Assembly: GCA_965224195.1 (NCBI GenBank)
Contig: OZ245040.1
Span: forward strand, 544,001-608,000
DNA from: Nitrosopumilus sp.
GTDB lineage: Archaea; Thermoproteota; Nitrososphaeria; Nitrososphaerales; Nitrosopumilaceae
Length of the DNA stretch: 64,000 nt
Direction of reading: 5' to 3'
The translations under genes were made by a program, and so were the position numbers. Position 1 is the stretch's first letter. Each line of letters opens with the position of its first letter. Shown here one piece after another: positions 15,492 through 32,986 of the stretch. The notes under the pieces were generated by a model, which ran no database searches, had not been told where the DNA came from, and saw only the letters and a program-made list of their open reading frames with translations.

Positions 15492-17783
15492 TTGTCAAAA
15501 AATAATGAAATAAGACACCTTGATATTAAAAAATTTACGAACGATTGGAATTCTGGAATGAGTTTTGTTGATTTATCTATAAAATATAATTTGGATTATA
15601 CTGGAAAAGCCAAAAGAATTGGGGAAAAATTAGGCTTGAAAAAACAAAAAAACCTAGACTTTTTTGAACGATTTCTCACAAACCCCAAAAAAACGGATAA
15701 ATTTATCTCAATGTATAATGACGACTCCATCAAAGTTAGAGAAATAACTAAACATTTTGATTTTACAGATAATGGGTATGTTTCAAAATTAGCAAAAAGA
15801 ATTGGAATTCCTGTAAGAGCAGGAGGATATGCAAGTCAAGGTAAATTTGATAAATCTGGGAATGAATTTTCCAAAATGTGGAATGAAAATATAGATAGTC
15901 AAGCAATAATGGAAAAATTGAATATAAGTAATGCCTCTTTACATACTTGGAGAGTTAAACTAGGCTTAAAACCTAGAACTCAAGGAAGAATTTTTCCTAA
16001 CGCAATTAAAAATAAAATTGAATTATTGTTACTAGAAAATTCAGGCGCATTAACATCTAAAGAACTAAAAAAATTACTAAATAAGGATATTCTCAATTTA
16101 ACAGATGCGTGCAAATCAATGAAATTTCAAAGACTGTCTTTGACTTTACATATAACTGGAAGGCGTTCTCGTCAGCCTACGGATTATTTTGGTGACAATA
16201 CTGGTCAAACTATAATATTTTTGAATAACATGTATGATAGTTTAATTCTCAAACTATCAAAAATATTGAGGGAAGGTAATATGTATAAAAATAATTTACT
16301 AAAAAAAGCAGTTTACAAATTCATGATTTCTCGTCTTGCAGAAAATGATATTAAAATTAAAAATAGAGAATCTCAACTTTTTCAAATTCTGTATAACAAA
16401 GAAAAACAAAATGAACTTGAATCTTTTATAAAAGTACAATTGAATAAATATTCAATTAAACAAAAACCCATAAAATCAATTTCAGAAATTAAATCAAATG
16501 ATCCTCTAGTTGATCAAATTATTGAAAATAAGCCAAAATCAATATTTTATGGACGTAAATTTGAATCAGAATTCATATTAAATGAACTAGATTCAGCCTA
16601 TCCAGATCAACAAAAAATACTTGTCCAAGAAATTTTTACACCTTTTAACTTTATTTGTACCTCTTTGAATGATGGATATTTTAATTTAAAAATTACTTCA
16701 AATGAATCATTTTTAATAAGATTCATGCTTCACCAACTGATCAATTCAACTACTCTTAACATATTTCACAGTAAATTAAATGGAAAAAAAGGAATAATAA
16801 TTAATTTTGAATTTATATCCGAATCAGTTCTTAAAACAATCCCTGAAAATATTCAGATTTTTAATAAAAATGATTTATTTTCATTATTAAATTCAGTTGA
16901 ATTTTTACCAATTAAACCCAATTCATTTGCAAAAATTATGTTTGGGGAAAACAAAGATGAGATTGTTTTTTGTAATGATGTTGATTTTAAAACAAATATT
17001 GCAGCAATCAGTGATTCAAATAAAAAAATAGACAATGTTTCGATAAAATTTTTGAAGCATATTAAATTACCAAAAGAAATTTCATTTTCAGATTATTTTA
17101 ATTTCATCAAAAAATTAGACAGAATATCTGTTAATGAAAATATTTCTTCCATGGATGAATGTATTGTAGATGTAACATCAATTAACACTGGATATTGGCC
17201 TATGATTGACTCTAAAGTGGATTCTAACCATACAAAAATTTTACTTCTTCATAATTCTTCTGATCAACGTATTGGTTATGATAACTATACTACTAGTACC
17301 GGATTTTTACGAAATGCTCTAATCAAATGTAATTGTTTATCATGGATTTCTCAAGAAAATCCTATTTTGTGTAAACATTCTGTTGCATTGTTATTTCACA
17401 TGTGGAAAGGAAACATTGCAAAATTTGATTGGCACATTGAAAGGAAAACAGTTGAAGACTTTTTAGATTATGTATCTTTCTTGATAAATTATTCGATTAA
17501 AATAGAGAATTTTTGGTTTCAAAAAATTGATCATGCAAAGGCAAATTGGGATTTAATTCATCATGCAATTTGTAATCTTATTGATGGTAAAATTTTCAAA
17601 ACCCCAAATTATGAGGAATCAGAAAAATCTGAATTGGAAAATTTAATGTTTGAATACAAAAATGAAAATAATAATTTGTTTAATTCTATGACTGAAATAC
17701 ATGCTGATCAAAGAAAAATGATCCGACAATCTTTGGATTATCAATTTAAAGAAAAAATGGAAGAATTAAAAAAATCATCATAA
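15492..17783 (+). CDS. multidomain protein: repeated HTHs and C-terminal SWIM zinc finger
   Basis: three HTH-like repeats ending KLGL/RIGI; CNC-x10-CKH SWIM motif. Confidence 0.6.
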   Translation: MSKNNEIRHLDIKKFTNDWNSGMSFVDLSIKYNLDYTGKAKRIGEKLGLKKQKNLDFFERFLTNPKKTDKFISMYNDDSIKVREITKHFDFTDNGYVSKLAKRIGIPVRAGGYASQGKFDKSGNEFSKMWNENIDSQAIMEKLNISNASLHTWRVKLGLKPRTQGRIFPNAIKNKIELLLLENSGALTSKELKKLLNKDILNLTDACKSMKFQRLSLTLHITGRRSRQPTDYFGDNTGQTIIFLNNMYDSLILKLSKILREGNMYKNNLLKKAVYKFMISRLAENDIKIKNRESQLFQILYNKEKQNELESFIKVQLNKYSIKQKPIKSISEIKSNDPLVDQIIENKPKSIFYGRKFESEFILNELDSAYPDQQKILVQEIFTPFNFICTSLNDGYFNLKITSNESFLIRFMLHQLINSTTLNIFHSKLNGKKGIIINFEFISESVLKTIPENIQIFNKNDLFSLLNSVEFLPIKPNSFAKIMFGENKDEIVFCNDVDFKTNIAAISDSNKKIDNVSIKFLKHIKLPKEISFSDYFNFIKKLDRISVNENISSMDECIVDVTSINTGYWPMIDSKVDSNHTKILLLHNSSDQRIGYDNYTTSTGFLRNALIKCNCLSWISQENPILCKHSVALLFHMWKGNIAKFDWHIERKTVEDFLDYVSFLINYSIKIENFWFQKIDHAKANWDLIHHAICNLIDGKIFKTPNYEESEKSELENLMFEYKNENNNLFNSMTEIHADQRKMIRQSLDYQFKEKMEELKKSS

Positions 17784-17806
17784 TCGGTAATTACACAAAA
17801 GGTTTT

Positions 17807-20323
17807 ATGCATCTAATTCATAATTTCATATCTATGCCGGTTGAAAAATACGGTTTAAAGTTAATTCCCTTTAAATCTCAAGGTTCAGAATCTGGAAAAT
17901 ATCCATTTGTTCCCTCTGAATCATTTAATAATTTAATATCTGAAATTCAAGAAATTCGTGAAGATAAAGACGCTGGCTCTATCATCTTTAGAGGCCCCCA
18001 AGGTAGTGGTAAAACTGCTACTAGGAATGGAATTTTAAATAATTTTTTACAACAAACCGATGTTGGAATAATTACCGTTAATCTTTCTTCACTTGAATTA
18101 AGAGATTTGACATGGTCAATAGCAAATAATGCCAAAAAACAGAATTTAATTGATGATAAATTTCTTAAAGAAATAGATTATGTTGAAGGGCAAAATATTG
18201 AAAGGCCCAGGTTATTAGAAATAATCATTTCAATTATAGAAAAAATTTTGTCAGTAAAGGAATTTGGTATTTTAATTATTGATGAATTTGATATTATTTC
18301 TCAACCTACTTTTCATGATACAGATAATCAAACAACTTTTCTTCAAAATATTACAAATTTTTTAAATTTGATCAGTGAATCTAAAATGGTACAAAAAAAA
18401 TCGTTTTGCACAATTCTTGCACAAACTGATAAAAGTTCTGAGGATTTTATAACATATGTCTCTAATAGACATAAACCACTTGCTTCTAGATTAAAACGTA
18501 GTGTTGATATAGAATATAATTTGGATGAAACAAAACAAATCATCTTGAACAGATTAGAATCTGAACAAATAGATGGATTTGTAAAACCTGATGGAAATGA
18601 ATTTTTTCCCTTAGATGAAAAAATAATAGAATTTCTTTTTATTGAAATTAATCAATTGACACTAAAGAAAAAAATGACTGCATTTAGAGATGTGGAACAA
18701 ATTTTACATAATTCAATTGTAAAATCTTTGGAAAAAAATTTACCAAAAGTGGATATTAATATTGTTATGGAGATCTTTAATCAGGAAAAAACAAAACTAT
18801 TTGAAATTAAACGAGAAGAACTTCGAATTAACAAAGAAACAATTATTGAGCTTGATAAATTACTCCTTGACAAGGATCACTCTGCAGCAAATAACTTGTA
18901 TCTTGATGGTATTAAAGATGGAATGACTGTTTGGGAATCACAATTATACAAAACTGTTGACTCTAATGGTGCAAGATCAAGATTAATTCCAGATAATGGG
19001 CACAGTTTATTCATTAATAGTATCAGGTTAGATCTTCAATCTAGTTCAAAACATCACAAGTCAATTTTGTGGTATGATGTTTCTAAATTTGAAAACAAAG
19101 AATTCACTGATAAGGATTTTAAAGAAATTAATTTATTTTTAGATGAAAACAAAGATGAAAGAAATGGATGCCAATTTTCAATTTTAACTATATTTTCAGA
19201 TACCCTATTAACAGATGAAATAAAATTAAAAAATGATCAAATTACTTCTATGGATGAAATCTTTATCTGTAACAATATTGTAAAAAAAGCAATCATTGGA
19301 ATAGCAATTTCTAACTCAGCAACTAAGGATGTATCGAATCCTTCAGATGATCGTGAGCAATTTAAGCCTAATTGGAATACACATCTACATAGTGTATGTA
19401 CTGATAAATTAGGAGAAACTCTTCACGATCTTGATAAAGAATTTTCAGATAAAAATAAAGTTCTTGTTCAAATTCTCTTTACAAAATCTGCTATTGGGGA
19501 AACATTCCAAAAAAAGGTTGATCTAAAAAACTTGGCAAGAGGAATTTCTAATTTGAATATTCAAGAAAACAATGTTAATGAAATCATACTATTAGGATTT
19601 TGTAATGAAGAACTACAACCTACCATTCCACGAAATCTGGTTTCACTTAAAAATTTAATCGAATTAGGAAAAACAAGTGATGAAATTTTAACATTTTTCT
19701 CTAAACCTTTTACATTTGGAGCTGCAAAATTATTAAATATTATTGATGATAATGGGAAATTAGTTAATTTTGAGAATCTAAAAAAGGAAATCGAGGATGA
19801 TTTAATTCAAAAAATGAAAGATGTTTTACCCGAGGATACTACAACTTTATCAGTTAATCAAACAATAATTAAATTACTTGTAGACGCATTTGAAAAAATC
19901 GATGAAATAACTAATTATTTAAAAAAAATAATTGTGTTGAGCTATATTCGTGAACAATCTGAAAAATCTTTGGAAGATTTATCTGTAGATTCAACATTCT
20001 CTGAATCTGGTGCTTCCACCACTGAATCTGGTGCTTCCACCACTGAATCTGGTGCTTCCACCACTGAATCTGGTGCTTCCACCACTGAATCTGGTGCTGC
20101 TGATGTTCGCGATACCGCTGTAAATAATGAAAAATCTGAAGAAATAACTCTCGACATGCTTCTAGATGTATGTAATGATGTTCTAAAGGATGGTAAATTA
20201 ACACTCAATGAATTACGCAAAAGAATTAGTATGAAACCACGTTTTGAAGACGAGACTAAATGGGTTACAAAAATTTATGCTTTAATTCGTAGTAGTAAAA
20301 TATCTCTCAGTAAAGGAAATTAA
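17807..20323 (+). CDS. P-loop AAA+ ATPase (DpdH/Cdc6-like) with repeat linker and short C-terminal domain
   Basis: Walker A GPQGSGKT, Walker B IIDEFD, Arg finger PLASRL; real start possibly 17834. Confidence 0.8.
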   Translation: MHLIHNFISMPVEKYGLKLIPFKSQGSESGKYPFVPSESFNNLISEIQEIREDKDAGSIIFRGPQGSGKTATRNGILNNFLQQTDVGIITVNLSSLELRDLTWSIANNAKKQNLIDDKFLKEIDYVEGQNIERPRLLEIIISIIEKILSVKEFGILIIDEFDIISQPTFHDTDNQTTFLQNITNFLNLISESKMVQKKSFCTILAQTDKSSEDFITYVSNRHKPLASRLKRSVDIEYNLDETKQIILNRLESEQIDGFVKPDGNEFFPLDEKIIEFLFIEINQLTLKKKMTAFRDVEQILHNSIVKSLEKNLPKVDINIVMEIFNQEKTKLFEIKREELRINKETIIELDKLLLDKDHSAANNLYLDGIKDGMTVWESQLYKTVDSNGARSRLIPDNGHSLFINSIRLDLQSSSKHHKSILWYDVSKFENKEFTDKDFKEINLFLDENKDERNGCQFSILTIFSDTLLTDEIKLKNDQITSMDEIFICNNIVKKAIIGIAISNSATKDVSNPSDDREQFKPNWNTHLHSVCTDKLGETLHDLDKEFSDKNKVLVQILFTKSAIGETFQKKVDLKNLARGISNLNIQENNVNEIILLGFCNEELQPTIPRNLVSLKNLIELGKTSDEILTFFSKPFTFGAAKLLNIIDDNGKLVNFENLKKEIEDDLIQKMKDVLPEDTTTLSVNQTIIKLLVDAFEKIDEITNYLKKIIVLSYIREQSEKSLEDLSVDSTFSESGASTTESGASTTESGASTTESGASTTESGAADVRDTAVNNEKSEEITLDMLLDVCNDVLKDGKLTLNELRKRISMKPRFEDETKWVTKIYALIRSSKISLSKGN
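20001..20098 (+). repeat. 21-bp coding tandem repeat, 4 full copies plus 14 bp (ESGASTT)
   Basis: CTGAATCTGGTGCTTCCACCA identical at 20001, 20022, 20043, 20064; partial at 20085. Confidence 0.97.
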
Positions 20324-20324
20324 A

Positions 20325-21323
20325 ATGCAACTTAATAAAAAAATTATCAAAGCTCCAGCTGTAGATAATCTTAATATTCTTAAAAAAATTATTAAAAGTC
20401 TAGAGTATACCCCTATCCCATTTAGTTATATTGATGAAAGGAATCTTGAATCGCTAGAAAATAAGAAAAAAATTTCTCACCAAGTCCATGAAAGTATTAA
20501 TGAATGGAAAGATAGTCAAGAGATTTCTCATGCAAAAGGATTTTTACAATCTATTGTTTCATTATTAAGATCATTGAATATTATTTCAAATGTAAAAATT
20601 AAAAAAGAATTTTTAGATACACCACTTGGTTTTTCTGGACCAATGCTTAATACATTTTTAACAAAAAGTATTGATGCAGTTATGTTGACAAAAATTGGAT
20701 ATAGTCTTTTAGATTTATTGGAAAAAAATGATATTCAATCTAGAAATACATATGATAATATATTATTCTGGAGATTTTTACATAGTAACATAACACATAA
20801 CTTTCAACGACTTTTTGAAAATTCTGATACTTATACAAAAGGAATTGAAAAAACACTAGAGAAATTTGAAACAGATACTCGTACAAGAGGTATTTTCTTA
20901 AGTTGGATAAATTATTTTGATTTAAAAGGAATTGATGAGACTCATAGTAATTCAATTATTTTGAGCAAAAAAAAAGTTATTAAAAAAATTATTTCATCCA
21001 CTATACTTGAATTAAACACTTTAAAAATTGACATATATTCAATTGAAATACTTTCAAACCATCTTTCTCAACAACTTGATTTGTCTAATACTATCTGTGA
21101 CTTCTTATCTATTTTTGAGATTATTTTAAAACACACAAACTTATCAGATGAACAAAAGAAATCTATATCTGGAACAACATCCTCAAGAATCAGTTCACAC
21201 TTGCCAAATTTTCCTAAAATAAACATGTTAAAAATTCATAGTAGTATACCTATGGATCAAATTTTAGAAAATACTACAGACTCTGAATTTAATTCAGTAT
21301 TGAATTTTGGTGATAATGAGTGA
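20325..21323 (+). CDS. putative tandem winged-helix DNA-binding protein
   Basis: operonic (1-bp gap upstream, GTGA overlap downstream); LRSLNII...MLTKIG...RTRGIFLSW pattern. Confidence 0.5.
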   Translation: MQLNKKIIKAPAVDNLNILKKIIKSLEYTPIPFSYIDERNLESLENKKKISHQVHESINEWKDSQEISHAKGFLQSIVSLLRSLNIISNVKIKKEFLDTPLGFSGPMLNTFLTKSIDAVMLTKIGYSLLDLLEKNDIQSRNTYDNILFWRFLHSNITHNFQRLFENSDTYTKGIEKTLEKFETDTRTRGIFLSWINYFDLKGIDETHSNSIILSKKKVIKKIISSTILELNTLKIDIYSIEILSNHLSQQLDLSNTICDFLSIFEIILKHTNLSDEQKKSISGTTSSRISSHLPNFPKINMLKIHSSIPMDQILENTTDSEFNSVLNFGDNE

Positions 21324-24010
21324 ATCCCAAGGATATTGTAAAAGATGAAATTTATCGTATAGAAAATTCATTAATTCAACAAAAAATATTTCTTGATAAC
21401 AACAATCAACCAATGTTTATCACGAATGTGCAGATTGCGAAAGGAACTGGATTATCTGAAACAGAAGTCATAGATGTCATAACAGAATTAGCCCAAAATG
21501 AGAAAAATGAATTTATTATTTTTGATAATACTCTCGGTATTTCGGCAGATGAAAATATTCAGTTTTTTGTTAGAACAAGAATATATCATATAATATGGAC
21601 ATTGTATAGATCTGCCAGTAGAACCAGGAGTAATCCGCCTAAATTTAATATTGGTGATTATCAATATTTACGACATGTTAAACGTCGTCCAAAACAATCT
21701 GAAAATTTAGAAGATGTATTTAATGATGAGGAAATCAAAAAGAATTTTGACTATCCAAAAAATGACTTGTTCAATAAGGTTATTGCCCATATTAAAATAA
21801 ATACTAATTTCAAAAAAATTAGTAACTTTCAAAAAAAATCAACTGTTAAAATATTAAAAAATCTTGAATTAAGAAAAAAGCCAAGAGGTATTGTCTTGGT
21901 TGCTGGCACAGGTGCTGGTAAATCATTTGCATACCAATTTCCACTCTTACTTTGGATACTAAATAAAAAATTTAAAAAATTTGATGAATTCCGTAAAGGA
22001 TACATTAAGGAATCTGATTTACATGTTAATTGTACTGGATTACTGATTTTTCCAAGAAACGCTTTAGCACAAGATCAATTTGAATCCATATCCTATCTAA
22101 TTGATATTATTAATGAAGAAATTTGCAAATTCCCTGATGCAGTAGGAAGAAAATTCCTTACAATTAAAAAACCACTTCCTGACTTTCATAGTAATATTAG
22201 TGGTGATTTGAAAAACAAATATGGAAATAACTCTGAAAAAGGTTATCCTGATTTAATTATCACTCATCCCAAATCATTAGAACGTAGACTTATCAATCCA
22301 GATTGTAGTTTTGTGTATAAACAAGGAATAGATTGTGTATTATATGATGAAGTACACTTATGGGATGGAATAGAAGGGGCAGAAATTGCTTCATTAAATG
22401 CACGATTACAAAATTTATTCCAAGAAAAGTCAAATCCGCCGTTATTTGTTGGTATGTCTGCAACAATTGATCAACCTGAATGGCATTGCCAAAAATTATT
22501 TTCTTTGTTGACTGAAAAGAAACCTGAATCCATAATACAAGGAGACGATGATGATACAGTGCCTTTTTCAATTGAACATCATTTAATTCTTAAACCTAGA
22601 AGTGGTCGACCCCCAATAGGTGTTGCAATAGATACAACATCATGCTTGATACATAATCGTAGAAATGGATTATCATTATCACATGATGATGATAATTTCC
22701 CCTCACACATAGATCGAGAAAATAAAGACAAAAGTCTCACTTTTATAGATTCTTTAAATCAAACTGCAAAATTTGCTAACAAATTAAATAATTTTGAATA
22801 TTTTTGGGATGGTCATGCTCAAATAGCACGAACTTCAGGTTCCCAAAGACCATACAGATCATATCTTTATCACTATAGACCCGAGCAACGTCCACCTAAA
22901 GGAGTTCCAAACAATAAATGGACCGCCAATCATGATTGTAATGACTGTGTAAATCGAACTAGTCCAGAAATTTTTACATGTCCAAGTTATGCTCGCGGTG
23001 AATGTTGGTATTATTCTTCAGATGATGCAAATCAATTTGCAAATACCCCTTATGGAAATTGGAAACAATTAGTTCGAGGAGACAGACTAACAGTTCCAAG
23101 AGACAATATTCGTTCAATACGAGTTTCAAGTTTAGAAAACAAAAAAATTAAAAATAAATATGATTATTTTTTGTTTAAAGATAACATATGGATACCTGAT
23201 GGTAAAGTTCCTGCTTCTGTAGATATGGTTTCTGATATTGATAATATCGTGTCAACTTCCACTCTAGAAGTAGGGGTTGACTTCAAAAAGATCAAAGAAA
23301 TTATACAAGTTGGAGACATTCGATCTCCTTCATCATATAAACAAAAAGCTGGTAGAGGAGCTCGTGAAGGAAATAGTGAGGATGGGTTATTTGTAATGAC
23401 TGTTATTAATGACTCTTCCTTAGCATATTATCATTTTAAACACTTTAGTAGATTAGTGAAATCTAGTCTAGATCCACTAAAACTTGAAACAACAAATCCC
23501 AATATCATAAGATCTAATTGCTTCTTTTCAATTTTTGATTTTATGGCATTAAATAAAATTAATTTATTTAAAATTGTACGTTTAGAGGCTACAGAAATAG
23601 ATTTGGAATATGAAAAAGCAATAAAATTACTTGATGATTCTAAATTGGAAAAATATGTTGCAAGATTTCTTGCTAAATTTAACAAATCAGAAAGTAGTAT
23701 TATCCAAAAAACCATTAAAGATGTACGAGATTTTCTAGAAATACTATCAACAAAAAGAGAAGTAATTATTAATGATGTGAAAATACAACATACTCTACAC
23801 GAATGGTTGATACAATCTGTTAATAGTCTAAATACTCTACAAGAAGTTAAAAAACAATTAGGTATTGATACACTTCAAAAACAAGAAGATGCAATAGGCG
23901 ATATCACAAAGTATATGGATGAGTTAGAAACATCCTATCAAAAACAATTTCCTGATGATGATTTAATTACAAAAAAATTACATGAATTGAGGAGAGAGAT
24001 ATTTGAGTAA
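21320..24010 (+). CDS. SF2 DEAD/DEAH-box helicase (DpdJ/DrmA-like)
   Basis: AGTGAGKS, FPRNALAQDQ, DEVH, SAT, STSTLEVGVD, QKAGRGAR; Cys-rich insertion. Confidence 0.9.
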   Translation: MNPKDIVKDEIYRIENSLIQQKIFLDNNNQPMFITNVQIAKGTGLSETEVIDVITELAQNEKNEFIIFDNTLGISADENIQFFVRTRIYHIIWTLYRSASRTRSNPPKFNIGDYQYLRHVKRRPKQSENLEDVFNDEEIKKNFDYPKNDLFNKVIAHIKINTNFKKISNFQKKSTVKILKNLELRKKPRGIVLVAGTGAGKSFAYQFPLLLWILNKKFKKFDEFRKGYIKESDLHVNCTGLLIFPRNALAQDQFESISYLIDIINEEICKFPDAVGRKFLTIKKPLPDFHSNISGDLKNKYGNNSEKGYPDLIITHPKSLERRLINPDCSFVYKQGIDCVLYDEVHLWDGIEGAEIASLNARLQNLFQEKSNPPLFVGMSATIDQPEWHCQKLFSLLTEKKPESIIQGDDDDTVPFSIEHHLILKPRSGRPPIGVAIDTTSCLIHNRRNGLSLSHDDDNFPSHIDRENKDKSLTFIDSLNQTAKFANKLNNFEYFWDGHAQIARTSGSQRPYRSYLYHYRPEQRPPKGVPNNKWTANHDCNDCVNRTSPEIFTCPSYARGECWYYSSDDANQFANTPYGNWKQLVRGDRLTVPRDNIRSIRVSSLENKKIKNKYDYFLFKDNIWIPDGKVPASVDMVSDIDNIVSTSTLEVGVDFKKIKEIIQVGDIRSPSSYKQKAGRGAREGNSEDGLFVMTVINDSSLAYYHFKHFSRLVKSSLDPLKLETTNPNIIRSNCFFSIFDFMALNKINLFKIVRLEATEIDLEYEKAIKLLDDSKLEKYVARFLAKFNKSESSIIQKTIKDVRDFLEILSTKREVIINDVKIQHTLHEWLIQSVNSLNTLQEVKKQLGIDTLQKQEDAIGDITKYMDELETSYQKQFPDDDLITKKLHELRREIFE

Positions 24011-26237
24011 AATAGATGAAATAGAAAAAATTCTAGAAAATAGGTTAAAAGAAGTAGAATTTAAAAAAAGCAACTTGATTGTTAATCCATTCACTAATCT
24101 TAAAAACTCCTTAAAAGAATTTGAAGAAAGTAAAAAAATTTCTAATAAAAGTGGGATTGATATTTTCAGATTGGAATTATATTTATCTGAATTATATGAA
24201 GACTTGAACAATAGAAAGGGAAATCAAAAATCCGATGAAACATCGTTTAATGTCTTCACAAAATTACCACTAAAACCTTATGCCAAATCATCCATCGGTT
24301 CTACGGTTACGTTATCTAGAGGGACAAATTATTCTGAGGAGGTATTGCCATCAAAAACTATTTTTACACAACTTTTACCGGGTCAAGTAACACATAGGTG
24401 GGATTTCCATTCACAATGGAGAGTTCCATGTGGAAAATATTCTGAAGATTTTATTAGTCATCTTAAAGGAATTCATAAAATATCTTCAACTCCATTTATC
24501 CAACATGAAGGTAAAAATGTCCACACATTAGAAAAAATAAATGTTATGACGTTACAAGGGGTTACCAATAACTCATATGTAGATGAGAATGGTGAAGAAC
24601 AGAAAAGACAAGGAGGAATTCCTGTTTGTCCAGAATGTTTGTCAATAAATATTTCTGGGGGCAGAGTGGCAGAACAGTGTATTCATGTAAGAGATGGTAA
24701 CAGTAATCCTATAGGACGTTCCTCATTATATGCATCTCCAATTTTAGAAAATATTGAAATTAGTGGTGAGAGAGAAATATCAAAACCAAATCATTTCTCT
24801 TTCCCGTTAAATGAAATATTTGAAAAAATAGAGTTTTTAGAAAATTGTCAAATCATTACTGTTGCTACAGGTTTTAGTAGAGAAATAGGAGGTGTCTCGA
24901 TACAAGTTCAATATGATCCATATATCGGATATAAGACAGATACAAACGGATTATTATTTGTAGTAAAAGAGATTCCAGGTGATTTTGTTAAACAAGTATT
25001 AAATGATGATTTTCTTGTGAGGGATGTCATAATAGATATTCTACAAGATAAAATTCTTCATATTTTAAATAATTCGAATAAGAGTTCTTTTGAATTAGAA
25101 GTATGGCTTTCTGGACTAATCAAAGCGTTAAGACTTGATTCAATTTCGACCACCTTTGATTATTTGAACACACTTAATCAATTACATTCTGCTTCATTTG
25201 ATGATGATTTTTTAAGTTGTGTTCAAACTGAATTAAGTTATTATGAATACGAACAATTTGGCATAGATCCAACAAGAATTGCAGTAATGTCTAACGAAAT
25301 AAAAAATATCAGTATTTCAGAAGATGATTTAAAATTAAAAATTAAAAGATTGCTTAAAAATTCATTAACTTACTTAATACATCAAACAGGATTGGTTACA
25401 TCAGGTTCAACTGATCAAGATATTGGATTTATATATCCAAAAGAAAATACAAACGAAATTTTACTTTTTGATGATATGTCTGGTGGAAATGGTGCTTCAA
25501 AATTAATTAATGATTATTTGGTTGGTGTAAGCTCTTCATATTCTCCAAAGCATGGAGCACGACCCAAATATTTTCAAGAAACATTTTTTGAATTATTACA
25601 GCCATGTCCACAAGGTACTGCTGATAGAAGTTTTTTCCAAGATTTGGTTAAAATCTTTACAAATTTTTCTAACAATAATTTAATTAGTAAAAAATTTGAA
25701 GAAATTCAAGAACAACAAAATGCTTCACAAAATGAATTTGCGCAAATAAAAACTTCTGGTATTCAAAATATGTTTCCTCATTCAATTGGTAAAAGAGGAT
25801 TAATACAAAATGGAATAACAAACACAACAGAAAGTAAGAAAATTCAAGAAATTGCAAACATCTGTATCCACGGTTGTTTTGAATGTGGTCTTTTAAAGGG
25901 GAATTATTCTGGAATAAAAGGTCCTAAACTTGAGAAATTTTATGTTAGTAAATATTTACTTGATAAATACTTCAAATTTGTTACACAAAAAATTCGAATT
26001 GATATTGATACCAATACATCTGAAATAGAAAAAATTTTCAAAGAACACAAAATGATAATTATTTCACAAAAAATTGGAAATGCTAACAACATCTATCAAG
26101 TGATGTCAAAAATGAATTCATTAATTGGTGAAGAATTCGATAAAAAATTGGTGAAATTTTCAGGACTGTGGTTTGATTGTCCAATTTCAAATTCTCCAGA
26201 GGTTGAATTATCTATTTTATTGAGCGTGATTAAATGA
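24003..26237 (+). CDS. DUF1998/MrfA-like Zn-binding helicase partner (DrmB- or DpdJ C-terminus-like)
   Basis: LFDDMSGGNGAS followed by PCP...ICIHGCFEC; overlaps helicase stop. Confidence 0.75.
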   Translation: MSKIDEIEKILENRLKEVEFKKSNLIVNPFTNLKNSLKEFEESKKISNKSGIDIFRLELYLSELYEDLNNRKGNQKSDETSFNVFTKLPLKPYAKSSIGSTVTLSRGTNYSEEVLPSKTIFTQLLPGQVTHRWDFHSQWRVPCGKYSEDFISHLKGIHKISSTPFIQHEGKNVHTLEKINVMTLQGVTNNSYVDENGEEQKRQGGIPVCPECLSINISGGRVAEQCIHVRDGNSNPIGRSSLYASPILENIEISGEREISKPNHFSFPLNEIFEKIEFLENCQIITVATGFSREIGGVSIQVQYDPYIGYKTDTNGLLFVVKEIPGDFVKQVLNDDFLVRDVIIDILQDKILHILNNSNKSSFELEVWLSGLIKALRLDSISTTFDYLNTLNQLHSASFDDDFLSCVQTELSYYEYEQFGIDPTRIAVMSNEIKNISISEDDLKLKIKRLLKNSLTYLIHQTGLVTSGSTDQDIGFIYPKENTNEILLFDDMSGGNGASKLINDYLVGVSSSYSPKHGARPKYFQETFFELLQPCPQGTADRSFFQDLVKIFTNFSNNNLISKKFEEIQEQQNASQNEFAQIKTSGIQNMFPHSIGKRGLIQNGITNTTESKKIQEIANICIHGCFECGLLKGNYSGIKGPKLEKFYVSKYLLDKYFKFVTQKIRIDIDTNTSEIEKIFKEHKMIIISQKIGNANNIYQVMSKMNSLIGEEFDKKLVKFSGLWFDCPISNSPEVELSILLSVIK

Positions 26238-26788
26238 CACATGTTGATGAACTAAATTATGCAATGGTGGATTTTGATATATTAGCTTCAGAATTAATAA
26301 AATCTATTTTTAATAAAAATGATGATAATGAAGTTATAATAATTTCACCGTGGATGGTAGATTATGCATTACCAATGACCTGGCCCTCTTTTAGTAGTAA
26401 TTTTATTAATATTACAGATATGCAAACAACAAGTGATATTCTAAGATTACTATTGCAGAATGGTGTTTTAGTAACGATCATGTCACATTCAACTGCACAA
26501 TTAGAAAAAGATGGATGGGGTAATGTTGCTATTAGAAATGCAGTAGATTTTTCTAATAAAATAAAAGATGATGGTGGAAAAATAATTCATAATCAAATAA
26601 ATCACGGTAAGCTAACATATACTAGTGAACATGCATTAGCTGGTTCTGGTAATTATACAAATAAGGGTAGGAATCCAATATTGCAAAATAACATAGGTGA
26701 ATTAATTGTTAAAAGTAAAGATGAAAAAAGTCATGGATTAAAACATAGATGGGCTTTAGATAGACTCAAAGAAGGAAAATCCATATAA
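26234..26788 (+). CDS. phospholipase D-family nuclease (DpdK/DrmC-like)
   Basis: IISPW, HGK (HKD Asp replaced) and GSGNYT; ATGA overlap. Confidence 0.8.
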   Translation: MTHVDELNYAMVDFDILASELIKSIFNKNDDNEVIIISPWMVDYALPMTWPSFSSNFINITDMQTTSDILRLLLQNGVLVTIMSHSTAQLEKDGWGNVAIRNAVDFSNKIKDDGGKIIHNQINHGKLTYTSEHALAGSGNYTNKGRNPILQNNIGELIVKSKDEKSHGLKHRWALDRLKEGKSI

Positions 26789-28051
26789 TTATTTCCCAAA
26801 ATAATACAAACCTAATTTTCTATCAATAGAGTTACACCATGTAGCCAATCCCAATAATAACAAAACATCTTCTTTGTCTTTCATTGAATATTTTTTTGAT
26901 TTTTTCAAATGAATTACAATATCCTCAAAGTTTTGAGGAGTATTTGACAATAGTTTTAACATGTACTTGTATTCTGGAATTTTTTCTTTTAATTTTTTAT
27001 TCAACTTTGTTTTAGCTGATCTTTTCTCCAATGATTTTAAGAACTCTTTACCTTCATTACTAAGATAGATAACACCATCACGTTTAGTTGTAAATTTTAA
27101 CAATTCTCCTAATTTTGTATAACTGCCATTTTCTGTTTCATATCTGGAGTGTAGTAGATTTTTTATGGCCATTCCATCTTTAACTGATTCTAGGAATTTG
27201 GGGAATTTTGTAACTGATATTTGAGGAGGTGTGAAATTACCTGTTACAGGACTTGCTTTTTTGTATTCACTGTTTTTTTTAGCGCCTTCTTCTGCTGCAC
27301 TAAATCCCTTATTTGAAATAATGAATGTAAAAGTACCTCGTCCTCTGTATGATAAATCCACTCTCAGAGGTAAATCATCACTTAAACCTAGTTTGACTTC
27401 TCCGCACTGAGTAACCATTTCAGTGACTGTTTTCAAATAATCCAATATGGTCCAAGTTTTCACATCTTTTTTTGGTATTTTATTTTTAAAAGACTCAAAC
27501 ACTTGACCTGAAAGATCTATTGTTTTGTGATAAGAAAATCCACCTTCTTCAGAACCTACAACAAATTTCCCATCCTCGATTCCAAAGAATATCTCTCTAG
27601 ACACTGATGATGCTTCATTAATTATCTCCAAGAATTCTTTGGATGGAATTGTGATTTCAGCATCATAATCTAAATTATTTGGTTCGGGTAGGTTGAATTC
27701 TTCATCCTCCAACCATTCTAATTCATAACGTGTTTTTTCATTATTTATAAAATTTAATGCAATGTTTTTTTTCCGAATATCAAGATTCAGTTTTTTTTCT
27801 TTTTTAATTTTTGTAATTACTTGTTTGAGCTTACCAATTTCAGCCTCTCTTGAAAATTTTTCAGAATCCCAGTTAAATCCATTAAAAAAGGTAGGTGATA
27901 ATTTAATATCCACATAACAAAAATCGTGAGGATCTATACTTCTAATCCTTACTCCGTTTTTACTAATATCAAATCTGGCTACATCTGTAAATCTTGTAAT
28001 GCCACGAAAAATGGCTTTGAATAATGCTAAATCCTCTATTCTTAATTCCAT
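26789..28051 (-). CDS. PCNA (sliding clamp) paralogue fused to a ~165-aa winged-helix-like domain
   Basis: first ~250 aa follow PCNA (FKAIF...VRIRSIDPHDFCYVDIKL...F, LPEPNNLDYDAEITI, VKLGLSDDLPLRVD...TFII); extra C-terminal domain PQ...YLSNEGKEFL...LATW. Confidence 0.82.
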   Translation of the reverse strand: MELRIEDLALFKAIFRGITRFTDVARFDISKNGVRIRSIDPHDFCYVDIKLSPTFFNGFNWDSEKFSREAEIGKLKQVITKIKKEKKLNLDIRKKNIALNFINNEKTRYELEWLEDEEFNLPEPNNLDYDAEITIPSKEFLEIINEASSVSREIFFGIEDGKFVVGSEEGGFSYHKTIDLSGQVFESFKNKIPKKDVKTWTILDYLKTVTEMVTQCGEVKLGLSDDLPLRVDLSYRGRGTFTFIISNKGFSAAEEGAKKNSEYKKASPVTGNFTPPQISVTKFPKFLESVKDGMAIKNLLHSRYETENGSYTKLGELLKFTTKRDGVIYLSNEGKEFLKSLEKRSAKTKLNKKLKEKIPEYKYMLKLLSNTPQNFEDIVIHLKKSKKYSMKDKEDVLLLLGLATWCNSIDRKLGLYYFGK

Positions 28052-29101
28052 TTATTTTCTACCAAATAATATGTTTGAAATACTATTGTATTTTTTCTTT
28101 AATTTAGCGTATTTCCATAAATAATCTAGAGAAGATGTTTTGTAAATTTCATTTAGATATTCCTCATATGCTTCTTGTCCTTTTTTGATTAGTTTTTTTG
28201 CTATTTTTATTTCATTTTTCATTACATGATCATTATGAATTGCTCTTGCTTTCCAGTCATCCCACAATGCATCTTGATTCATCCTACAAATTGGACAATC
28301 ACATTCTTGGAGTAATTTCATATCTTTTCTTTTTAATGAAACACCACCTCCAAATTTGGCGGTGTTATTCCCAACATATCTCTCAGCCGTACCTGGCAAT
28401 ACAATTTGACCAAATGCTGCTTTTCTTCTATATCCTGATGAATCTGTACTTTCTATTCCTAAATAATATCCTAAATGCAATGAAATTGGCGATGAACCTA
28501 AACCCATAATGTGAACATTGTAATCAGTATTTTTTTTTACACTTTCTACAGTATATGATAACATATCAATCAAATTTTTATTTGGTTGTCTATCTCCAAA
28601 AAATCCCGTATAGTTTGTAAATTCAGGATTAACAATACTTCCGACTGCCAAATAATCTGAATCTCCATATTTTTGAATCCATTTCAAATTTTTCATTAAT
28701 GATTTTTTATTCCAAGCATGAATTGAAGGGACTAGTTTTCCATCCAAATTTGTAGATGATTGCCAATATCGAATATTTTTTGCAGTGTCCTTCCATCTTT
28801 TTTGCATTGTTACCGCAGACATTCCATTTTTGAATGGATAGTCAAATGGAATTGTTTTATCAGGTTCTAATGTCTCTTGAATATCGATAATTTTTTCTAA
28901 ATCTAATTCCATATCTTGCATGTTTGCAGTATATGCGCCATTATCCAAAAATAATTCGCCCACCCTGTATGGTAGTTTTGGTTCATCTTTTCTGTAATAA
29001 TTAATAGCAGAATCCATGACGAAGTCTTTTCTGCGATCTGTTTTTACTGGGGCCTGTGGTTGCTCACCCATCCATAATAAGATCTCCTCCGTTCTGGACA
29101 T
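28052..29101 (-). CDS. tRNA-guanine transglycosylase-family protein lacking PUA domain (DpdA-like)
   Basis: LFLDNGAY, PFDYP, PSIH, YLAVGS, HIMGLG, GIESTDSS, Zn site CDCPIC...HN; only 349 aa. Confidence 0.85.
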   Translation of the reverse strand: MSRTEEILLWMGEQPQAPVKTDRRKDFVMDSAINYYRKDEPKLPYRVGELFLDNGAYTANMQDMELDLEKIIDIQETLEPDKTIPFDYPFKNGMSAVTMQKRWKDTAKNIRYWQSSTNLDGKLVPSIHAWNKKSLMKNLKWIQKYGDSDYLAVGSIVNPEFTNYTGFFGDRQPNKNLIDMLSYTVESVKKNTDYNVHIMGLGSSPISLHLGYYLGIESTDSSGYRRKAAFGQIVLPGTAERYVGNNTAKFGGGVSLKRKDMKLLQECDCPICRMNQDALWDDWKARAIHNDHVMKNEIKIAKKLIKKGQEAYEEYLNEIYKTSSLDYLWKYAKLKKKYNSISNILFGRK

Positions 29102-29129: not shown

Positions 29130-30126
29130 TACTTTGTCGAACAAATAACAATCTGATCAACTTTATTTCATAACAATAGCTTTGGATCTCACATTCTGAC
29201 CATTCTCATGGTTAACTGGAATCAATACAATGAGAAACTAGTCAGAAGAGGCGAGATCATAATGTCATTTGATGCTATTGATAACTGGCATAAAGAATTA
29301 GAGGTCATGAATCACAACAAAAGAGGTAGAAAGTTTGACTATCCTGATTCATTCATGAAATTATTGGGTTATGCCAGAGTATATTTTGGATTACCATTCA
29401 GACAAACAGAAGGAATGATACGTGCATATTGTAATAGAATTCCAGCAGTTCCTGATTTCACATCAATCCACAAGAGAATAAACAAGCTTGACATCAAAAT
29501 TGATGATTCCATTGGAGATAATAATGAAATCATTTTAGCAATTGACAGCACAGGAATCAAGGTTGCAAACAGGGGCGAATGGATGAGACAGAAATGGCAC
29601 ATGAGGAGAGGGTTTCTAAAAATCCATGTTGGTGCCGATGCCAGAACCAAGAAAATAGTTTCACTCAAAATAACAGATGATTCATCCCATGATGCTGCAC
29701 ATCTGCCAGAACTGGTACAGCAGGCATCACAGAAAGGAAAGGAAATGTAATCAAGGTTCTAGCTGATGGCGCATATGATTCAGAAAATAATTTCTCATAT
29801 CTATATCACAATACAAATGCACTGCCTGCAATCAAAGTTAGAAAGACATCATCCATCAAAACAAAATGTTATCCGAGAAAGAAATCAGTCTTGGCTCAAA
29901 TGTATAATTTGGATTTGTGGAAGCGCAGCGTCAGCTATGGGGACAGGTGGATTGCAGAGTGTGTGTTTTCAACATTCAAAAGGATGCTTGGTGAGTATGT
30001 CATGGCTCACAAAAGAAAATACATGATAAAGGAATTGGAATTAAAAGTCGAGCTGTACAATCTGCTTGCAGGTGCTTGAGGGAATGAAATTAGAAACTAG
30101 TTAGAAATGATTTGTTCGACAGAGTA
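29130..30126 (+). mobile_element. IS5-family insertion sequence (997 bp)
   Basis: 17-bp TIRs TACTTTGTCGAACAAAT / ATTTGTTCGACAGAGTA (1 mismatch); 8-bp TSD AGTATTTT at 29122-29129 and 30127-30134. Confidence 0.92.
29208..30079 (+). pseudogene. IS5-family DDE transposase, frameshifted
   Basis: YNEKLVRRG, IDSTG, then LADGAYD and RWIAECVFS in a second frame; apparent 5-bp GGAAA duplication near 29736-29745. Confidence 0.88.
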
Positions 30127-30964
30127 AGTATTTTAACTTGAGGAAAATTCTCCATCATGTAATCATGTAAAATTTATTTTAAATTTTGATAAAATGTCAT
30201 TATCAAACAATGTACTTAGGCCTCTTTTTGAGATTTTTGATTATCATATAGTTTATAGCTATAATCTAGAATGAATTTTCTGGGCTCTCTAAATGGGCCT
30301 CTAAATTTTACATCAATCACCTCTTTTTCTTCTTTTGTACTAGCACTCATTTCTAACACTCCATTTGCAAACCAAAGAAAATACTCTTCATCGTTTTTTT
30401 CCATGGTTCCTCTTCTCAAAAGATATAATGATTGAATTTTTCTTCTTTGTTCAAACCCCATATTATGGCGTAAGTATTGTGTTGCAATTTGAAAATCAGT
30501 AAATGCTAAAAAGTCAGATATTGCATCGTATGTTACTCGGATGCCATTACAACCTTTCTTTTCCAATTCACTCAATGCATTTTCATATTTTTTGTTAATT
30601 TCATGTGGATCGTATGAATTAGCATAGTGTAAATTGGATTCTTTCAATTTTTTGTTCCATGATTCTTTTTCAGAATCTAGAGAATAACAATCCACAAAAA
30701 TGATGTTATCAAAATTTATATTATTTTCTAAAATCTTTGTATTATTAGGATCCTCATTCTTCATTCGCTTCAGCTCTTCTTCCAACATGTCTTTGATTTC
30801 CCCAGCTGGTCGAGTAAATGTAAAATAAATTGCTCCTGATCCGTAGGATAATCCAGATAAAATAAATCTTAAAAGAATTTTCCAAGGCCGTGTTGTTTCA
30901 TCTGCTAAAATGATTATTGGAAAATAAATTTCCTTATCTTTCTTTGATAATTCTTGATTGATTA

Positions 30965-32033
30965 GACCTCTTGCATAATTAGAAACAAAATACTATCTTT
31001 CATTCTTGACAGATTCTAATTTTATGGAATTGCCATGAATTCTTCTCCCCATTTTATCTTGAAATTAATAATTCCACAAACAATGTCACTTGTTCCATCA
31101 TATCTGCACAATCTATTCCTAAATGTTTCTGAATTGATTCTAAATTTCTTTATCCTGCTAATTGCATGTTCTACTTTTATTCTGATTTTACTTTGTAACT
31201 TGTTCCAATCCTTTTGAGATGCGGCCAACTCTTTTCCTTTTTTTCTCTTGTATGGTAAGATGCTAGTTTGTTTTGGGAAATCTTTCTCAACACCCAAATA
31301 TCCAAGATCATAAAAGACCATTAAATCTTCAGATAGAGCAGGATATTTTATTTTCAGTATTGCGTAATCGTTTCTTCGTCCAGGGGAGTGTGGAGGTTTG
31401 TGAATAATCTCACCATTCAGGTTAATCGTAATTTGATTTTTGATTGTATGTCTTTTCTTTTTGCCTGAATAGTGAGTTTTTCTCTTCTTCTTATTTTTTG
31501 GTCTTGGGATGGGCTGTTCTGTTCCATCAGTAATTGCAATCAGTTCAGGAAAGAATTCCTGCAGTTGCTGTATGTCGTTAATCTTTTTTGAATCAGCATA
31601 CAGTTTGACAGGAATTGGAATTACACATTTCACTGCAGACTCTATTTTTGCAATGTCTCTACACACTGTTGATGAATCAACTCTAAACAGATATTCCAGT
31701 AAATCATAGCTTGTATAGCAACGATAGTAAATTAGCAGCATCAGAATCCTATCCCTTGCTGAAAGTTTGAATGGTCTTCCAGCTCCAATGTTTCTTTTTC
31801 TGTCTCTTTTTGAGAGTCTTTTTCTCTCTGTAATCTTGTATTGTTTCTGTATCTCTTTTGTCAAAAAATCAAACTGTGTTGCAGTTATTCCTGTAAATCT
31901 CAAGAATTGTTTTGGTTTTCTTGCTAGTTTTGTATAATTTAGCATGAAATGAAATGGTTTGTACTTAGCTTTGGATCTTGCTGTGAATGAATTTGGATTG
32001 TTCTATCAGATTTGGCTAATTATGCAAGAGGTC
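30965..32033 (-). mobile_element. IS5-family (ISL2-like) insertion sequence
   Basis: perfect 18-bp TIR GACCTCTTGCATAATTAG flanked by duplicated TA (30963-30964, 32034-32035). Confidence 0.92.
31022..31945 (-). CDS. DDE transposase (HTH plus DDE_Tnp_4 type), intact
   Basis: FLRFTG, GAGRPFKL, TDGTEQPIPRP, YSGKKKRHT, DLGY, RIKVEHAI. Confidence 0.92.
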   Translation of the reverse strand: MLNYTKLARKPKQFLRFTGITATQFDFLTKEIQKQYKITERKRLSKRDRKRNIGAGRPFKLSARDRILMLLIYYRCYTSYDLLEYLFRVDSSTVCRDIAKIESAVKCVIPIPVKLYADSKKINDIQQLQEFFPELIAITDGTEQPIPRPKNKKKRKTHYSGKKKRHTIKNQITINLNGEIIHKPPHSPGRRNDYAILKIKYPALSEDLMVFYDLGYLGVEKDFPKQTSILPYKRKKGKELAASQKDWNKLQSKIRIKVEHAISRIKKFRINSETFRNRLCRYDGTSDIVCGIINFKIKWGEEFMAIP

Positions 32034-32584
32034 TATTGACTCAATTCCCCATTTTTCGGGATTGTTGTGTTTAAACATTGAATCTGATTTTTTAAATTGT
32101 ATATTGTCTATTGTGAGTGTAGAGTATGTTGTTTTTAACAAATGAACAACCCCGAATGTCCAAAATACGATTGCAGTTTTTGTGAAAATATTTGGAACGC
32201 TAGGGTAACTAGCAAGAGAATATGGTTCGCCTCTTACAATTTCAATCAATATTAGAAATACTGATATCCATAAACATACCAGCGACACAAAAATATTTTC
32301 TCGCTTATTTCGTAATGATTCTCTCTTTATAGCAATTGGAATTATTAATGAAAATAATGAATTGGCTATCACAAAAATTGTTAAAATTCTAGCAATTCCT
32401 GCTTGATCTAAGGACGTGTTTGATAAATTTGGAATACTCCAATAAATCAACATTCCTGTTATTGTGAAGAGAATAAATGGAATAAACCAAGATTTGTATA
32501 TTTTATAATGTATTATCTTTTTTGTAAATAATACTATTTCTTTTTTCATAAGTTAACAATCTCATCTTTATTAATCATAATAAT

Positions 32585-32986
32585 TTATCTACAAATTTTG
32601 TTTAGTCTTTCTAACAATTCATTTTTTGACTTCACATGGAAATCTGAAAAATATAATGGCCAAGGAGTAGGAAGGGGATTTGGTGAAAAAAGTATTATTT
32701 TTTTACCTGCTTTTTTAGCTACAAACGCCTCTATAGCAGTTCCAAAACTAGGAGTATCAACTAAAATTATAAGAATATCTGCTTTTTCTATAAATTCTAA
32801 ATCATGCTCCACAATCTTTTTTGATAACTCTAATTCATTTCTAAAATCTTTGATATGTGAATAATCCATGTTTTGTGATTCTATATGGTTGATTGTGTCA
32901 TACCCTTGATTTTTCAACCAATCATAAAATTCCTTTATTACATTAATCCCGCCAAATCCTATAGAACCACATACCATTATTTCCAT
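32585..32986 (-). CDS. nucleoside 2-deoxyribosyltransferase / Rcl-like N-glycosidase
   Basis: VCGSIG, DLEFIEKAD, SFGTAIEAFVA...GKKI with family catalytic Glu. Confidence 0.8.
   Translation of the reverse strand: MEIMVCGSIGFGGINVIKEFYDWLKNQGYDTINHIESQNMDYSHIKDFRNELELSKKIVEHDLEFIEKADILIILVDTPSFGTAIEAFVAKKAGKKIILFSPNPLPTPWPLYFSDFHVKSKNELLERLNKICR

Follow-up and report, generated by a model that had tools for sequence, protein, structure and literature searches.

The window analysed here is a stretch of 64,000 nucleotides from Nitrosopumilus sp. (assembly GCA_965224195.1, contig OZ245040.1, positions 544,001 to 608,000 of the forward strand), in which two adjoining genes on the minus strand are the subject of this work. 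The first (28052-29101) encodes a 349-aa enzyme of the TGT superfamily, hereafter the TGT-like protein, which consists of the catalytic TIM-barrel core only. The second (26789-28051) encodes PCNA-wH, a 420-aa fusion of a PCNA fold with a winged-helix-like (wH) domain. Three parts can be told apart in PCNA-wH: the PCNA-fold domain (residues 1-248, 27308-28051), recognised by Pfam, phmmer, AlphaFold, Foldseek and NCBIfam; a linker (residues 249-277, 27221-27307); and the C-terminal wH-like domain (residues 278-420, 26792-27220), which is strongly basic. As the initial annotation of this DNA had claimed, the two genes abut. The junction (28049-28054) reads ...AGA AAA TAA ATG GAA... on the minus strand, the TAA stop codon of the TGT-like gene (28052-28054) being followed, with no spacer at all, by the ATG of PCNA-wH (28049-28051). 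We propose that the pair is a single cassette, and that it probably carries out the clamp-assisted base exchange, or "marking", in a modular archaeal defence system that resembles Dpd.

Additional copies in the source genome

The genome from which the window was taken (G000; 2.07 Mb, 99.85% complete) also encodes the normal counterparts of both proteins. A housekeeping PCNA is present as a 248-aa open reading frame (ORF) at position 232114 of contig C1 (PCNA_N, 69.9 bits), as the view of PCNA-wH as an extra clamp had presupposed, and it shares 22-24% identity with the PCNA domain of PCNA-wH. The host arcTGT is likewise a separate ORF of 512 aa, located at C1:458244 and scoring 260 bits. Since the genome has both the 248-aa PCNA and the 512-aa arcTGT, the TGT-like protein and PCNA-wH are both extras.

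The TGT-like protein

The TGT-like protein matched the Pfam TGT family with 55.3 bits over residues 63-321 and is without the PUA/C1/C2 tRNA-binding domains. Against the NCBIfam TgtA equivalog, which represents arcTGT, it reached 33.3 bits, the cut-off being 350. Across 27 homologues the residues D53, D220, C267, C269, C272 and H289 do not vary, and in the alignment with arcTGT 1iq8 they correspond to its Asp pair and Cys3-His site, which we take to be the catalytic and zinc-binding residues. DpdA, the transglycosylase of the bacterial Dpd system, is characterized by a TGT core that has these two sites and lacks tRNA-binding domains, and all of these features were found in the TGT-like protein. 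A phmmer search with the single sequence recovered no relative from the PDB, and in PHROGs the protein matched phrog_887 (queuine tRNA-ribosyltransferase) with an E value of 4e-10.

PCNA-wH: the clamp domain

The initial annotation described the 420-aa protein as containing a full PCNA fold, and this was borne out by several approaches. Both Pfam halves were recognised above their cut-offs within residues 1-247 (PCNA_N 28.4 bits, cut-off 20.3; PCNA_C 25.2 bits, cut-off 23), which gives the two tandem clamp domains of PCNA topology. In a phmmer comparison with 94 PCNA sequences of the PDB the best full-length match had an E value of 1.1e-12. The AlphaFold model of PCNA-wH (mean predicted local distance difference test, pLDDT, 80.7) has the strand and helix order of PCNA, so that the N-terminal domain does model as a clamp, and its best Foldseek match was Sulfolobus PCNA 2ix2_B (E 1.2e-19, TM 0.89 on the target). 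The protein does not qualify as a replicative PCNA orthologue, as it is 420 aa long, has a separate housekeeping copy in the genome and falls under every equivalog or subfamily cut-off of the NCBIfam sliding-clamp models (58-99 bits, cut-offs 99-293). No ATPase motif was detected in PCNA-wH, and neither PCNA-wH nor four of the effector proteins described below had a match in PHROGs.

The best conserved part of the PCNA domain is made up of R35-D48 and L121-P124, which correspond to the centre loop and the connector loop. I39, F44 and Y46 are at least 90% conserved or invariant, L121-P124 are nearly invariant and P228 is invariant. We take the centre and connector loops to be the client-binding face of PCNA, and the assignment of a pocket on PCNA-wH is made on that understanding; I39, F44 and Y46 align one residue off positions 40, 45 and 47 of yeast PCNA, which presumably line the pocket for the PCNA-interacting protein (PIP) box.

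Basic residues are kept on the four inner helices of the domain (K12 in 81%, R20 in 94%, K74 in 92% and K207 in 92% of 36 homologous sequences), as would be expected of a DNA-facing channel. The same 36 sequences bear on a different reading, in which the cassette and its DNA-marking role are unchanged and PCNA-wH is a DNA-binding processivity adaptor, monomeric or dimeric, rather than a loaded ring, much as the herpesvirus proteins UL42 and UL44 serve as processivity adaptors that do not encircle DNA. The PCNA domain is slightly acidic (median net charge -2), and PCNA-wH carries basic parts of its own in the C-terminal domain (+13 in the window protein, family median +8) and the linker (+1, median +5). 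An adaptor would also be consistent with the lack of an RFC-like loader in either of the effector sets described below, with best structural matches that are subunits of the Sulfolobus heterotrimer, which are presumably monomers on their own, and with the stand-alone PCNA-like protein of genome G206 (see below), which has lost the conserved centre-loop and connector motifs of the family. Against this stand the conserved basic residues of the inner helices, and the host RFC (small-subunit match), which could load PCNA-wH. We regard the adaptor as a less probable arrangement, although the most plausible of the alternatives that were weighed.

PCNA-wH: the linker and the C-terminal domain

The linker is disordered in the AlphaFold model (pLDDT <50), and the stretch corresponding to residues 246-280 is 22-37 residues long in the 36 homologues; it is basic in most of the family. 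The domain that follows had been described as wH-like and of about 165 aa. It is indeed folded, and its size was put too high: it comprises about 143 aa at residues 278-420, the larger figure taking in some of the linker. Modelled alone (pLDDT 82.5), it forms a helix-helix-helix-hairpin arrangement followed by five helices. Fold matches were weak, the best being Sso10a 1r7j (E 0.067) followed by the wH domains of MarR/PadR, CggR and the BpuJI recognition domain, and none of 339 reached an E value of 0.001 or better; the label "wH-like" is for this reason reasonable but short of proof. Pfam gave AAA_assoc_C at 19.7 bits, which is under the cut-off, a protein-language search led to DUF7226, AAA_assoc_C and double winged-helix clusters (0.90-0.92), and a profile of the domain found no sequence relative in the PDB. 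A wH domain common to PCNA-wH and the 332-aa effector protein was considered and rejected, since hhalign gave a probability of 1%.

Among 401 sampled genomes of the phylum the full C-terminal domain occurs inside a 420-aa frame in G000 only, and it was found in none of 56 other members of the family to which G000 belongs. Stand-alone proteins of about 225-310 aa with this domain are present in three other Thermoproteota families (16 of 23, 11 of 12 and 4 of 24 genomes). Examples at L043:1471-2145 and L041:1471-2268, from a group numbered L041-L051, share the whole domain and show only the sub-threshold AAA_assoc_C match; they apparently represent an unnamed housekeeping family of double-wH proteins.

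Conservation of the pair

A word-based search recovered 51 full-length homologues of PCNA-wH (405-450 aa, at least 97% query coverage, down to 30% identity), and 172 homologues of the TGT-like protein were found, from which it follows that neither the fusion nor the TGT-like gene is a product of chance. The PCNA-wH family is nonetheless small, as only 33 of 1.84 billion cluster representatives, searched exhaustively with a profile, had an E value of 1e-30 or better, full-length fusions and fragments together, after which came ordinary PCNAs of about 245 aa. Within the phylum PCNA-wH is a rare accessory gene, present in 1 of the 401 sampled genomes.

The gene neighbourhood was compared in 35 external loci, namely one Nitrosopumilus metagenome-assembled genome (MAG), one Bathyarchaeia MAG and 33 metagenome contigs, which include the near-duplicates L010/11/12 and L020/21. 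The TGT-like gene lies directly upstream of PCNA-wH on the same strand in 34 of the 35; in the remaining locus (L013) the contig begins 20 nt ahead of PCNA-wH, so that the link to TGT genes on which the initial annotation relied holds in 34 of 34 testable loci. The gap between stop and start in these 34 loci is 0 nt in 13, an overlap (-4 or -1) in 3, 2-13 nt in 13 and 27-28 nt in 2, and was not called in 3. Pairwise distances of the two proteins in the 20 loci where both are complete were strongly correlated (Mantel r 0.96, none of 2000 permutations as high), indicating that they are inherited together. The TGT-like protein is the better conserved partner, with 51-87% identity to the window protein across the loci, compared with 28-79% for PCNA-wH.

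Members of the TGT-like family at an E value of 1e-30 or better were present in four of the 401 genomes (G000, G206, G344 and G394). In G206 there is a 4-nt overlap between a 344-aa TGT-like gene and a stand-alone PCNA-like gene of 255 aa, which has no wH domain and matched the family hidden Markov model (HMM) with an E value of 7.7e-12; this is a reduced variant that keeps the TGT-PCNA link. The G206 genes stand in one row on a single strand (L056, G206:C24, 2072-10852), in which the TGT-like gene is followed by the PCNA-like gene, without a Pfam match, a DUF5591 gene, a HerA-like gene and a gene for a 1463-aa coiled-coil-like protein. G344 has only a 209-aa TGT-like fragment containing a stop codon. 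The TGT-like gene of G394 is more distant (31% identity, Pfam TGT 103.8 bits) and PCNA is absent there; its row (L058, G394:C19, 3652-9667) consists of three genes, encoding a 1407-aa STAND-type NTPase, a DUF5591 protein and the TGT-like protein.

Effector modules and cassette exchange

On the plus strand of the window, and convergent with the pair, lies a putative effector operon (15492-26788) that was characterized by PADLOC and Pfam. It encodes, in order, a 763-aa SWIM-like protein, an 838-aa AAA protein, a 332-aa protein, an 896-aa DpdJ-like helicase, a 744-aa protein and a 184-aa DpdK-like PLD protein. PADLOC identified DpdJ with an E value of 1.8e-31 and DpdK with a weak match (1.6e-4), and Pfam recognised DEAD/Helicase_C and AAA_22. 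The window island thus contains the two types of restriction gene by which Dpd systems are known, a DpdJ-type helicase and, weakly, a DpdK-type PLD protein.

When the neighbouring ORFs of all loci were clustered, two sets of effectors emerged. The first, found in 17 of the 35 external loci in addition to the window, comprises an AAA protein of about 830 aa, a protein of about 315 aa, the DpdJ-like helicase, a protein of about 745 aa and the DpdK-like PLD protein; its genes are usually colinear after PCNA-wH and convergent on the pair in the window, L005, L007 and L019. The second, in 6 of the 35, comprises a 299-aa protein, a 1195-aa protein, a NurA-like nuclease (36.4 bits) and a HerA-like ATPase (112.9 bits; PADLOC HerA E 1.8e-49). 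The remaining 12 loci were too short for typing. Both types are intermixed within one clade of the PCNA-wH tree (support 100/100), and the pair is joined to at least two unrelated effector sets. The comparison of L026 (type 2) with L031 (type 1) is instructive: their DNA is 83% identical over 2375 bp that span just the TGT-like gene and PCNA-wH (87% and 79% identity of the respective proteins), from about 80 nt before the TGT start to about 40 nt before the PCNA-wH stop, and the downstream genes are unrelated. As the identity stops near the 3' end of PCNA-wH, the effectors have been swapped at the boundary of the two-gene unit.

This exchange bears on the suggestion that PCNA-wH belongs mainly to the restriction side, where, as a clamp or sensor, it would mark or follow DNA that is foreign or unmodified and bring in the helicase/nuclease module, its adjacency to the TGT-like gene reflecting operon order only or a hub role for both halves of the system. 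PCNA is a general docking platform for archaeal nucleases and helicases, and PCNA-wH does lie between the TGT-like gene and the effectors in L010, L011, L015, L016, L018, L027 and L031 (TGT-like, PCNA-wH, AAA, 332-aa type, helicase, 744-aa type, PLD), an order also seen in L014 and L023 as far as the contigs reach. Set against this, PCNA-wH stays with the TGT-like gene when the effectors are exchanged, the breakpoint falling at its own 3' end; the pair is on the strand opposite the effectors in the window, L005, L007 and L019; its start abuts or overlaps the TGT stop in 16 of the 34 loci; and the complex model described below gave weak support to its pairing with the TGT-like protein (0.56, controls 0.00). 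A role mainly in restriction is thus unlikely, and we continue to read PCNA-wH as part of the marking cassette.

Further genes and features of the island

The window is AT-rich (26-37% GC), and the pair lies at the right end of a stretch of particularly low GC content (12-28 kb, 26-31% GC), which is flanked by aminoacyl-tRNA synthetase and transposase genes. An IS5-type DDE transposase ORF (29208-29750, plus strand; Pfam DDE_Tnp_1_5, 70.5 bits) begins about 100 nt upstream of the TGT-like start codon, and this insertion sequence (IS) element may have displaced the native promoter of the cassette. Beyond it, two minus-strand ORFs at 30216-30788 (190 aa) and 32016-32549 (177 aa) cluster with a single 394-aa ORF of L007 and are separated by a DDE_Tnp_4 transposase gene (31022-31945, 85.4 bits); a gene near the cassette has therefore apparently been interrupted by an IS element. 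At the left edge of the island, 12444-13286 (minus strand) encodes a 280-aa protein with a weak PIN-domain match (19.5 bits, under the cut-off). A tRNA-Gln(CTG) at 41885-41974 (plus strand) is, with 90 nt, longer than a standard tRNA, and an intron is possible.

Two other gene types were encountered near the system. A nucleoside 2-deoxyribosyltransferase-like gene recurs, lying upstream of the pair in the window (32585-32986, minus strand, 30.6 bits) and directly after the DpdK-like gene in L018 (17754-18212, 76.6 bits); ORFs of the same cluster as the L018 gene occur in L011 and L015, and the window copy shares a separate cluster with L007. In L005 and L007, which are the loci closest to the window, a protein of about 470 aa of the metallo-beta-lactamase/RMMBL type is encoded directly upstream of the TGT-like gene on the same strand (L005:7461-8876, L007:5227-6630), and this gene is absent from the window.

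7-deazaguanine genes, viral relatives and the substrate

Genes of the 7-deazaguanine pathway accompany the system at several loci. At the edge of the island in the window are a QueE gene (13453-14133, plus strand; NCBIfam 118/99.7 bits, under the model cut-offs) and a QueD gene (14134-14487, minus strand; PTPS 78.5 bits), which are additional copies, because the genome has another QueE-like gene and another PTPS gene outside the island, as well as QueC. In L029 genes for QueC (224 bits) and a QueT transporter are divergent from the TGT-like gene, and ORFs of the same two clusters occupy the same place in L006. A DUF5591 gene adjoins the TGT-like gene both in G206, where it comes after the PCNA-like gene, and in G394, where it precedes the TGT-like gene; DUF5591 is given as the catalytic core of the archaeosine synthase ArcS in PMC10516641. 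The 254-aa ORF at 14565-15329 was considered as a further DUF5591/ArcS-core protein and rejected, as it has no similarity to the G206 DUF5591 protein and no Pfam match.

A tblastn search with the TGT-like protein of 50,697 phage and archaeal-virus records returned five matches, all in the Sulfolobus viruses STSV1, STSV2 and STSV4 (29% identity over residues 49-252, 58% of the protein, E 3e-14). In STSV2 the relative, STSV2_15, lies directly before a DUF5591 gene, STSV2_16, and the two are called DpdA and ArcS in PMC10516641, which also reports that STSV2 DNA carries dCDG at 149 per million nucleotides. PCNA-wH had no match in phage or plasmid records, and no relative of either protein was found in viral contigs.

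On the strength of the Que, DUF5591 and STSV2 links, of the missing tRNA-binding domains and of the constant company of DNA helicase and nuclease genes, we read DNA as the likely substrate of the TGT-like protein. The initial annotation held its pairing with a clamp to be the strongest argument for this, which appears overstated, since equal weight attaches to the Que genes, to the STSV2 relative and to the exchange of nuclease/helicase modules. The contrary reading is that the TGT paralogue modifies RNA, be it tRNA or another species, or salvages 7-deazaguanine bases, and that its clamp-like partner is a scaffold unrelated to DNA marking. Public sources do label members of the family as tRNA-ribosyltransferases, the nearest solved sequence relative is arcTGT, models of DpdA fail to match, and the recurring nucleoside 2-deoxyribosyltransferase-like gene could point to chemistry at the nucleoside level. 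Yet the TGT-like protein has none of the C-terminal tRNA-binding domains (349 aa compared with 512 aa of the host arcTGT), stays at 33 bits where TgtA demands 350, and is constantly paired with a PCNA-fold protein and with sets of DNA helicases and nucleases; moreover, its only relatives in the phage and archaeal-virus records are those of the STSV viruses, of which STSV2 has dCDG in its DNA. An RNA substrate or a salvage role is accordingly regarded as very improbable.

The C-terminal tail and binding of the two proteins

The TGT-like protein ends in a conserved tail (residues 338-349, 28055-28090, minus strand; Y-x-[RS]-I-S-x-[VIA]-L-F-G), which is a candidate clamp-docking peptide. The end had been quoted as KYNSISNILF, a stretch that is present; the real end lies three residues further on, ...KKKYNSISNILFGRK. 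The tail was tabulated for 34 loci, and in the 27 aligned sequences, all of them PCNA-linked, it is kept throughout, with Y338, R340 and L345 at least 90% conserved and I341 and S342 invariant, and its hydrophobic residues (I341, V/I344 and L345) have PIP-like spacing. The ends of host clients are different, being ..QTGLDEFFWS in PolB and ..QNLDQWF in FEN1, and should the tail serve for docking, it would probably be specific to the private clamp.

A complex of the full-length TGT-like protein and PCNA-wH, each modelled with its own alignment, was graded as "weak support" with a score of 0.56 (runs 0.57, 0.56 and 0.52; best of three controls 0.00). Of 80 solved complexes 58 reach the mark for this grade, as do 2 of 110 mismatched pairs; with scores of 0.60 or less, however, only 7 of the 80 solved complexes do so, along with both of the passing mismatches. 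At least 52% of contacts are shared between the runs and the pLDDT of the partners is at least 79; no interface was reported. Direct binding of the two proteins thus has weak support from modelling.

Discussion

Taken together, the findings suggest the following mode of action. The short TGT-like enzyme would most likely put a 7-deazaguanine base (preQ0 or CDG) in place of guanine in double-stranded DNA, and PCNA-wH would be its dedicated DNA-engaging partner, filling the accessory role played in bacteria by the ParB-like ATPase DpdB. DNA may be held against the conserved basic inner helices of the PCNA domain, which probably forms a trimeric ring, and the basic linker and wH domain, which would leave the PCNA fold on its client-binding face, may add DNA affinity or choice of site. 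By docking through its conserved C-terminal tail the TGT-like enzyme could thereby scan and mark the host chromosome, and interchangeable helicase/nuclease modules, in the window the AAA, DpdJ-like and DpdK-like PLD proteins, would attack unmarked DNA. A more specific form of this proposal, which we put forward tentatively as possible, is that a private PCNA ring with tethered wH arms is the processivity and targeting subunit of a DNA base-exchange enzyme, and maybe also the hub where the restriction modules read the mark.

Several observations weigh against this interpretation. The PADLOC models of DpdA gave no match to the TGT-like protein of the window and reached only 2 of the 27 family members (E 0.0034), and a profile built from the 27 led in the PDB to arcTGT 1iq8 alone (E 1.3e-4) and to no DpdA; membership in DpdA by HMM was hence rejected, the protein being neither recognised by the DpdA family models nor tied to a solved DpdA. 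No clamp loader is evident at the loci. The 838-aa AAA protein is without RFC similarity, its best PDB match being TnsC (E 0.73), and AAA proteins of its type are absent from the NurA/HerA loci. Neither a longer protein related to PCNA-wH nor a TGT-PCNA fusion was found, which is weak evidence. By tblastn, QueD and QueE were not found beside the pair in other loci, so that their adjacency in the window could be incidental, and the window copy of the cassette is possibly mis-expressed because of the IS element just upstream of the TGT-like start. With respect to docking, the tail fits the PIP consensus poorly, with Tyr for Gln, an aliphatic V/I-L at positions 7-8 and no aromatic pair, in keeping with its earlier description as only weakly PIP-box-like. 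Finally, that the PCNA-less TGT-like protein of G394 ends seven residues after the conserved helix and has no tail speaks for a link between tail and clamp, but it is a single comparison.

Sliding clamps are known as platforms of replication and repair, and a private paralogue of the clamp that serves a DNA-modifying enzyme, if confirmed, would be a new use of the fold that specialists would find surprising. It would also be a different answer to the question of how an enzyme of the TGT type reaches guanines in duplex DNA, for which DpdA needs DpdB (PMC10164549). Putative 7-deazaguanine modification of DNA is extended by these loci from bacteria and viruses to cellular archaea, including Nitrososphaeria, Bathyarchaeia and others, and a compact two-gene marking cassette is defined that evolution has plugged into at least two nuclease/helicase sets. 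Should the more specific form of the proposal hold, this would be the first restriction-modification system whose design depends on a clamp, and a prokaryotic counterpart of epigenetic maintenance coupled to PCNA. The literature searched, apart from the DpdA homologue supplements of PMC6884629 and PMC10516641, yielded no paper linking PCNA with TGT or DpdA; the PCNA mentioned in passages of PMC11529989 is viral and unrelated.

The closest known parallel is the bacterial Dpd system, as in Salmonella Montevideo (DpdA/DpdB/DpdC). In PMC10164549 it is described that DpdA inserts preQ0 into duplex DNA only with the ATPase DpdB and that DpdC converts preQ0-DNA to ADG-DNA, restriction being carried out by dpdD-K (PMC10164549 and PMC5699537). 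Common to both systems are a TGT-superfamily enzyme without tRNA-binding domains and an island that holds preQ0-pathway genes together with helicase and PLD genes; as the Dpd transglycosylase needs an accessory protein, DpdB, we propose PCNA-wH as its counterpart. The differences are that the TGT-like protein of the island falls outside the DpdA models, that a PCNA-fold/winged-helix fusion, in which no ATPase motif was detected, would take the accessory part, and that the marking pair is also combined with the NurA/HerA set, which is no part of Dpd. PADLOC, run on 16 island proteins, found no DpdB or DpdC and no other Dpd protein beyond the DpdJ-like and DpdK-like ones. The initial annotation had the clamp replacing DpdB and DpdC: the former is in agreement with the missing DpdB match, which fits a different accessory protein, and the latter does not follow, because DpdC is the enzyme that makes ADG-DNA, which is beyond a clamp.

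The DpdA and ArcS (DUF5591) pair of STSV1 and STSV2 resembles the cellular G206 and G394 loci in having a relative of the TGT-like protein beside a DUF5591 gene. It differs in being viral, in having no helicase/nuclease module and in that no PCNA-like gene is annotated in the surrounding 6.5 kb. With replicative archaeal PCNA (Sulfolobus PCNA1-3, 2ix2, and the 248-aa protein of the host) PCNA-wH shares the two-domain fold, the connector loop and the basic inner helices, and the centre-loop motifs are similar (IDPHDFCYVD in PCNA-wH, MDPSHVALID in the host PCNA). Unlike these, it has a linker and a basic domain of 143 aa, and it is encoded with a base-exchange enzyme rather than with replication genes.

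In eukaryotes DNMT1 binds PCNA through a PIP box. There the clamp is the replicative one, the PIP box is canonical and the mark is methylation, whereas the archaeal pair would rely on a private clamp paralogue, has a tail of non-canonical sequence and would carry out base exchange. What the two would have in common, according to our proposal, is a DNA-marking enzyme that rides on a sliding clamp, so that its mark is copied along the chromosome.

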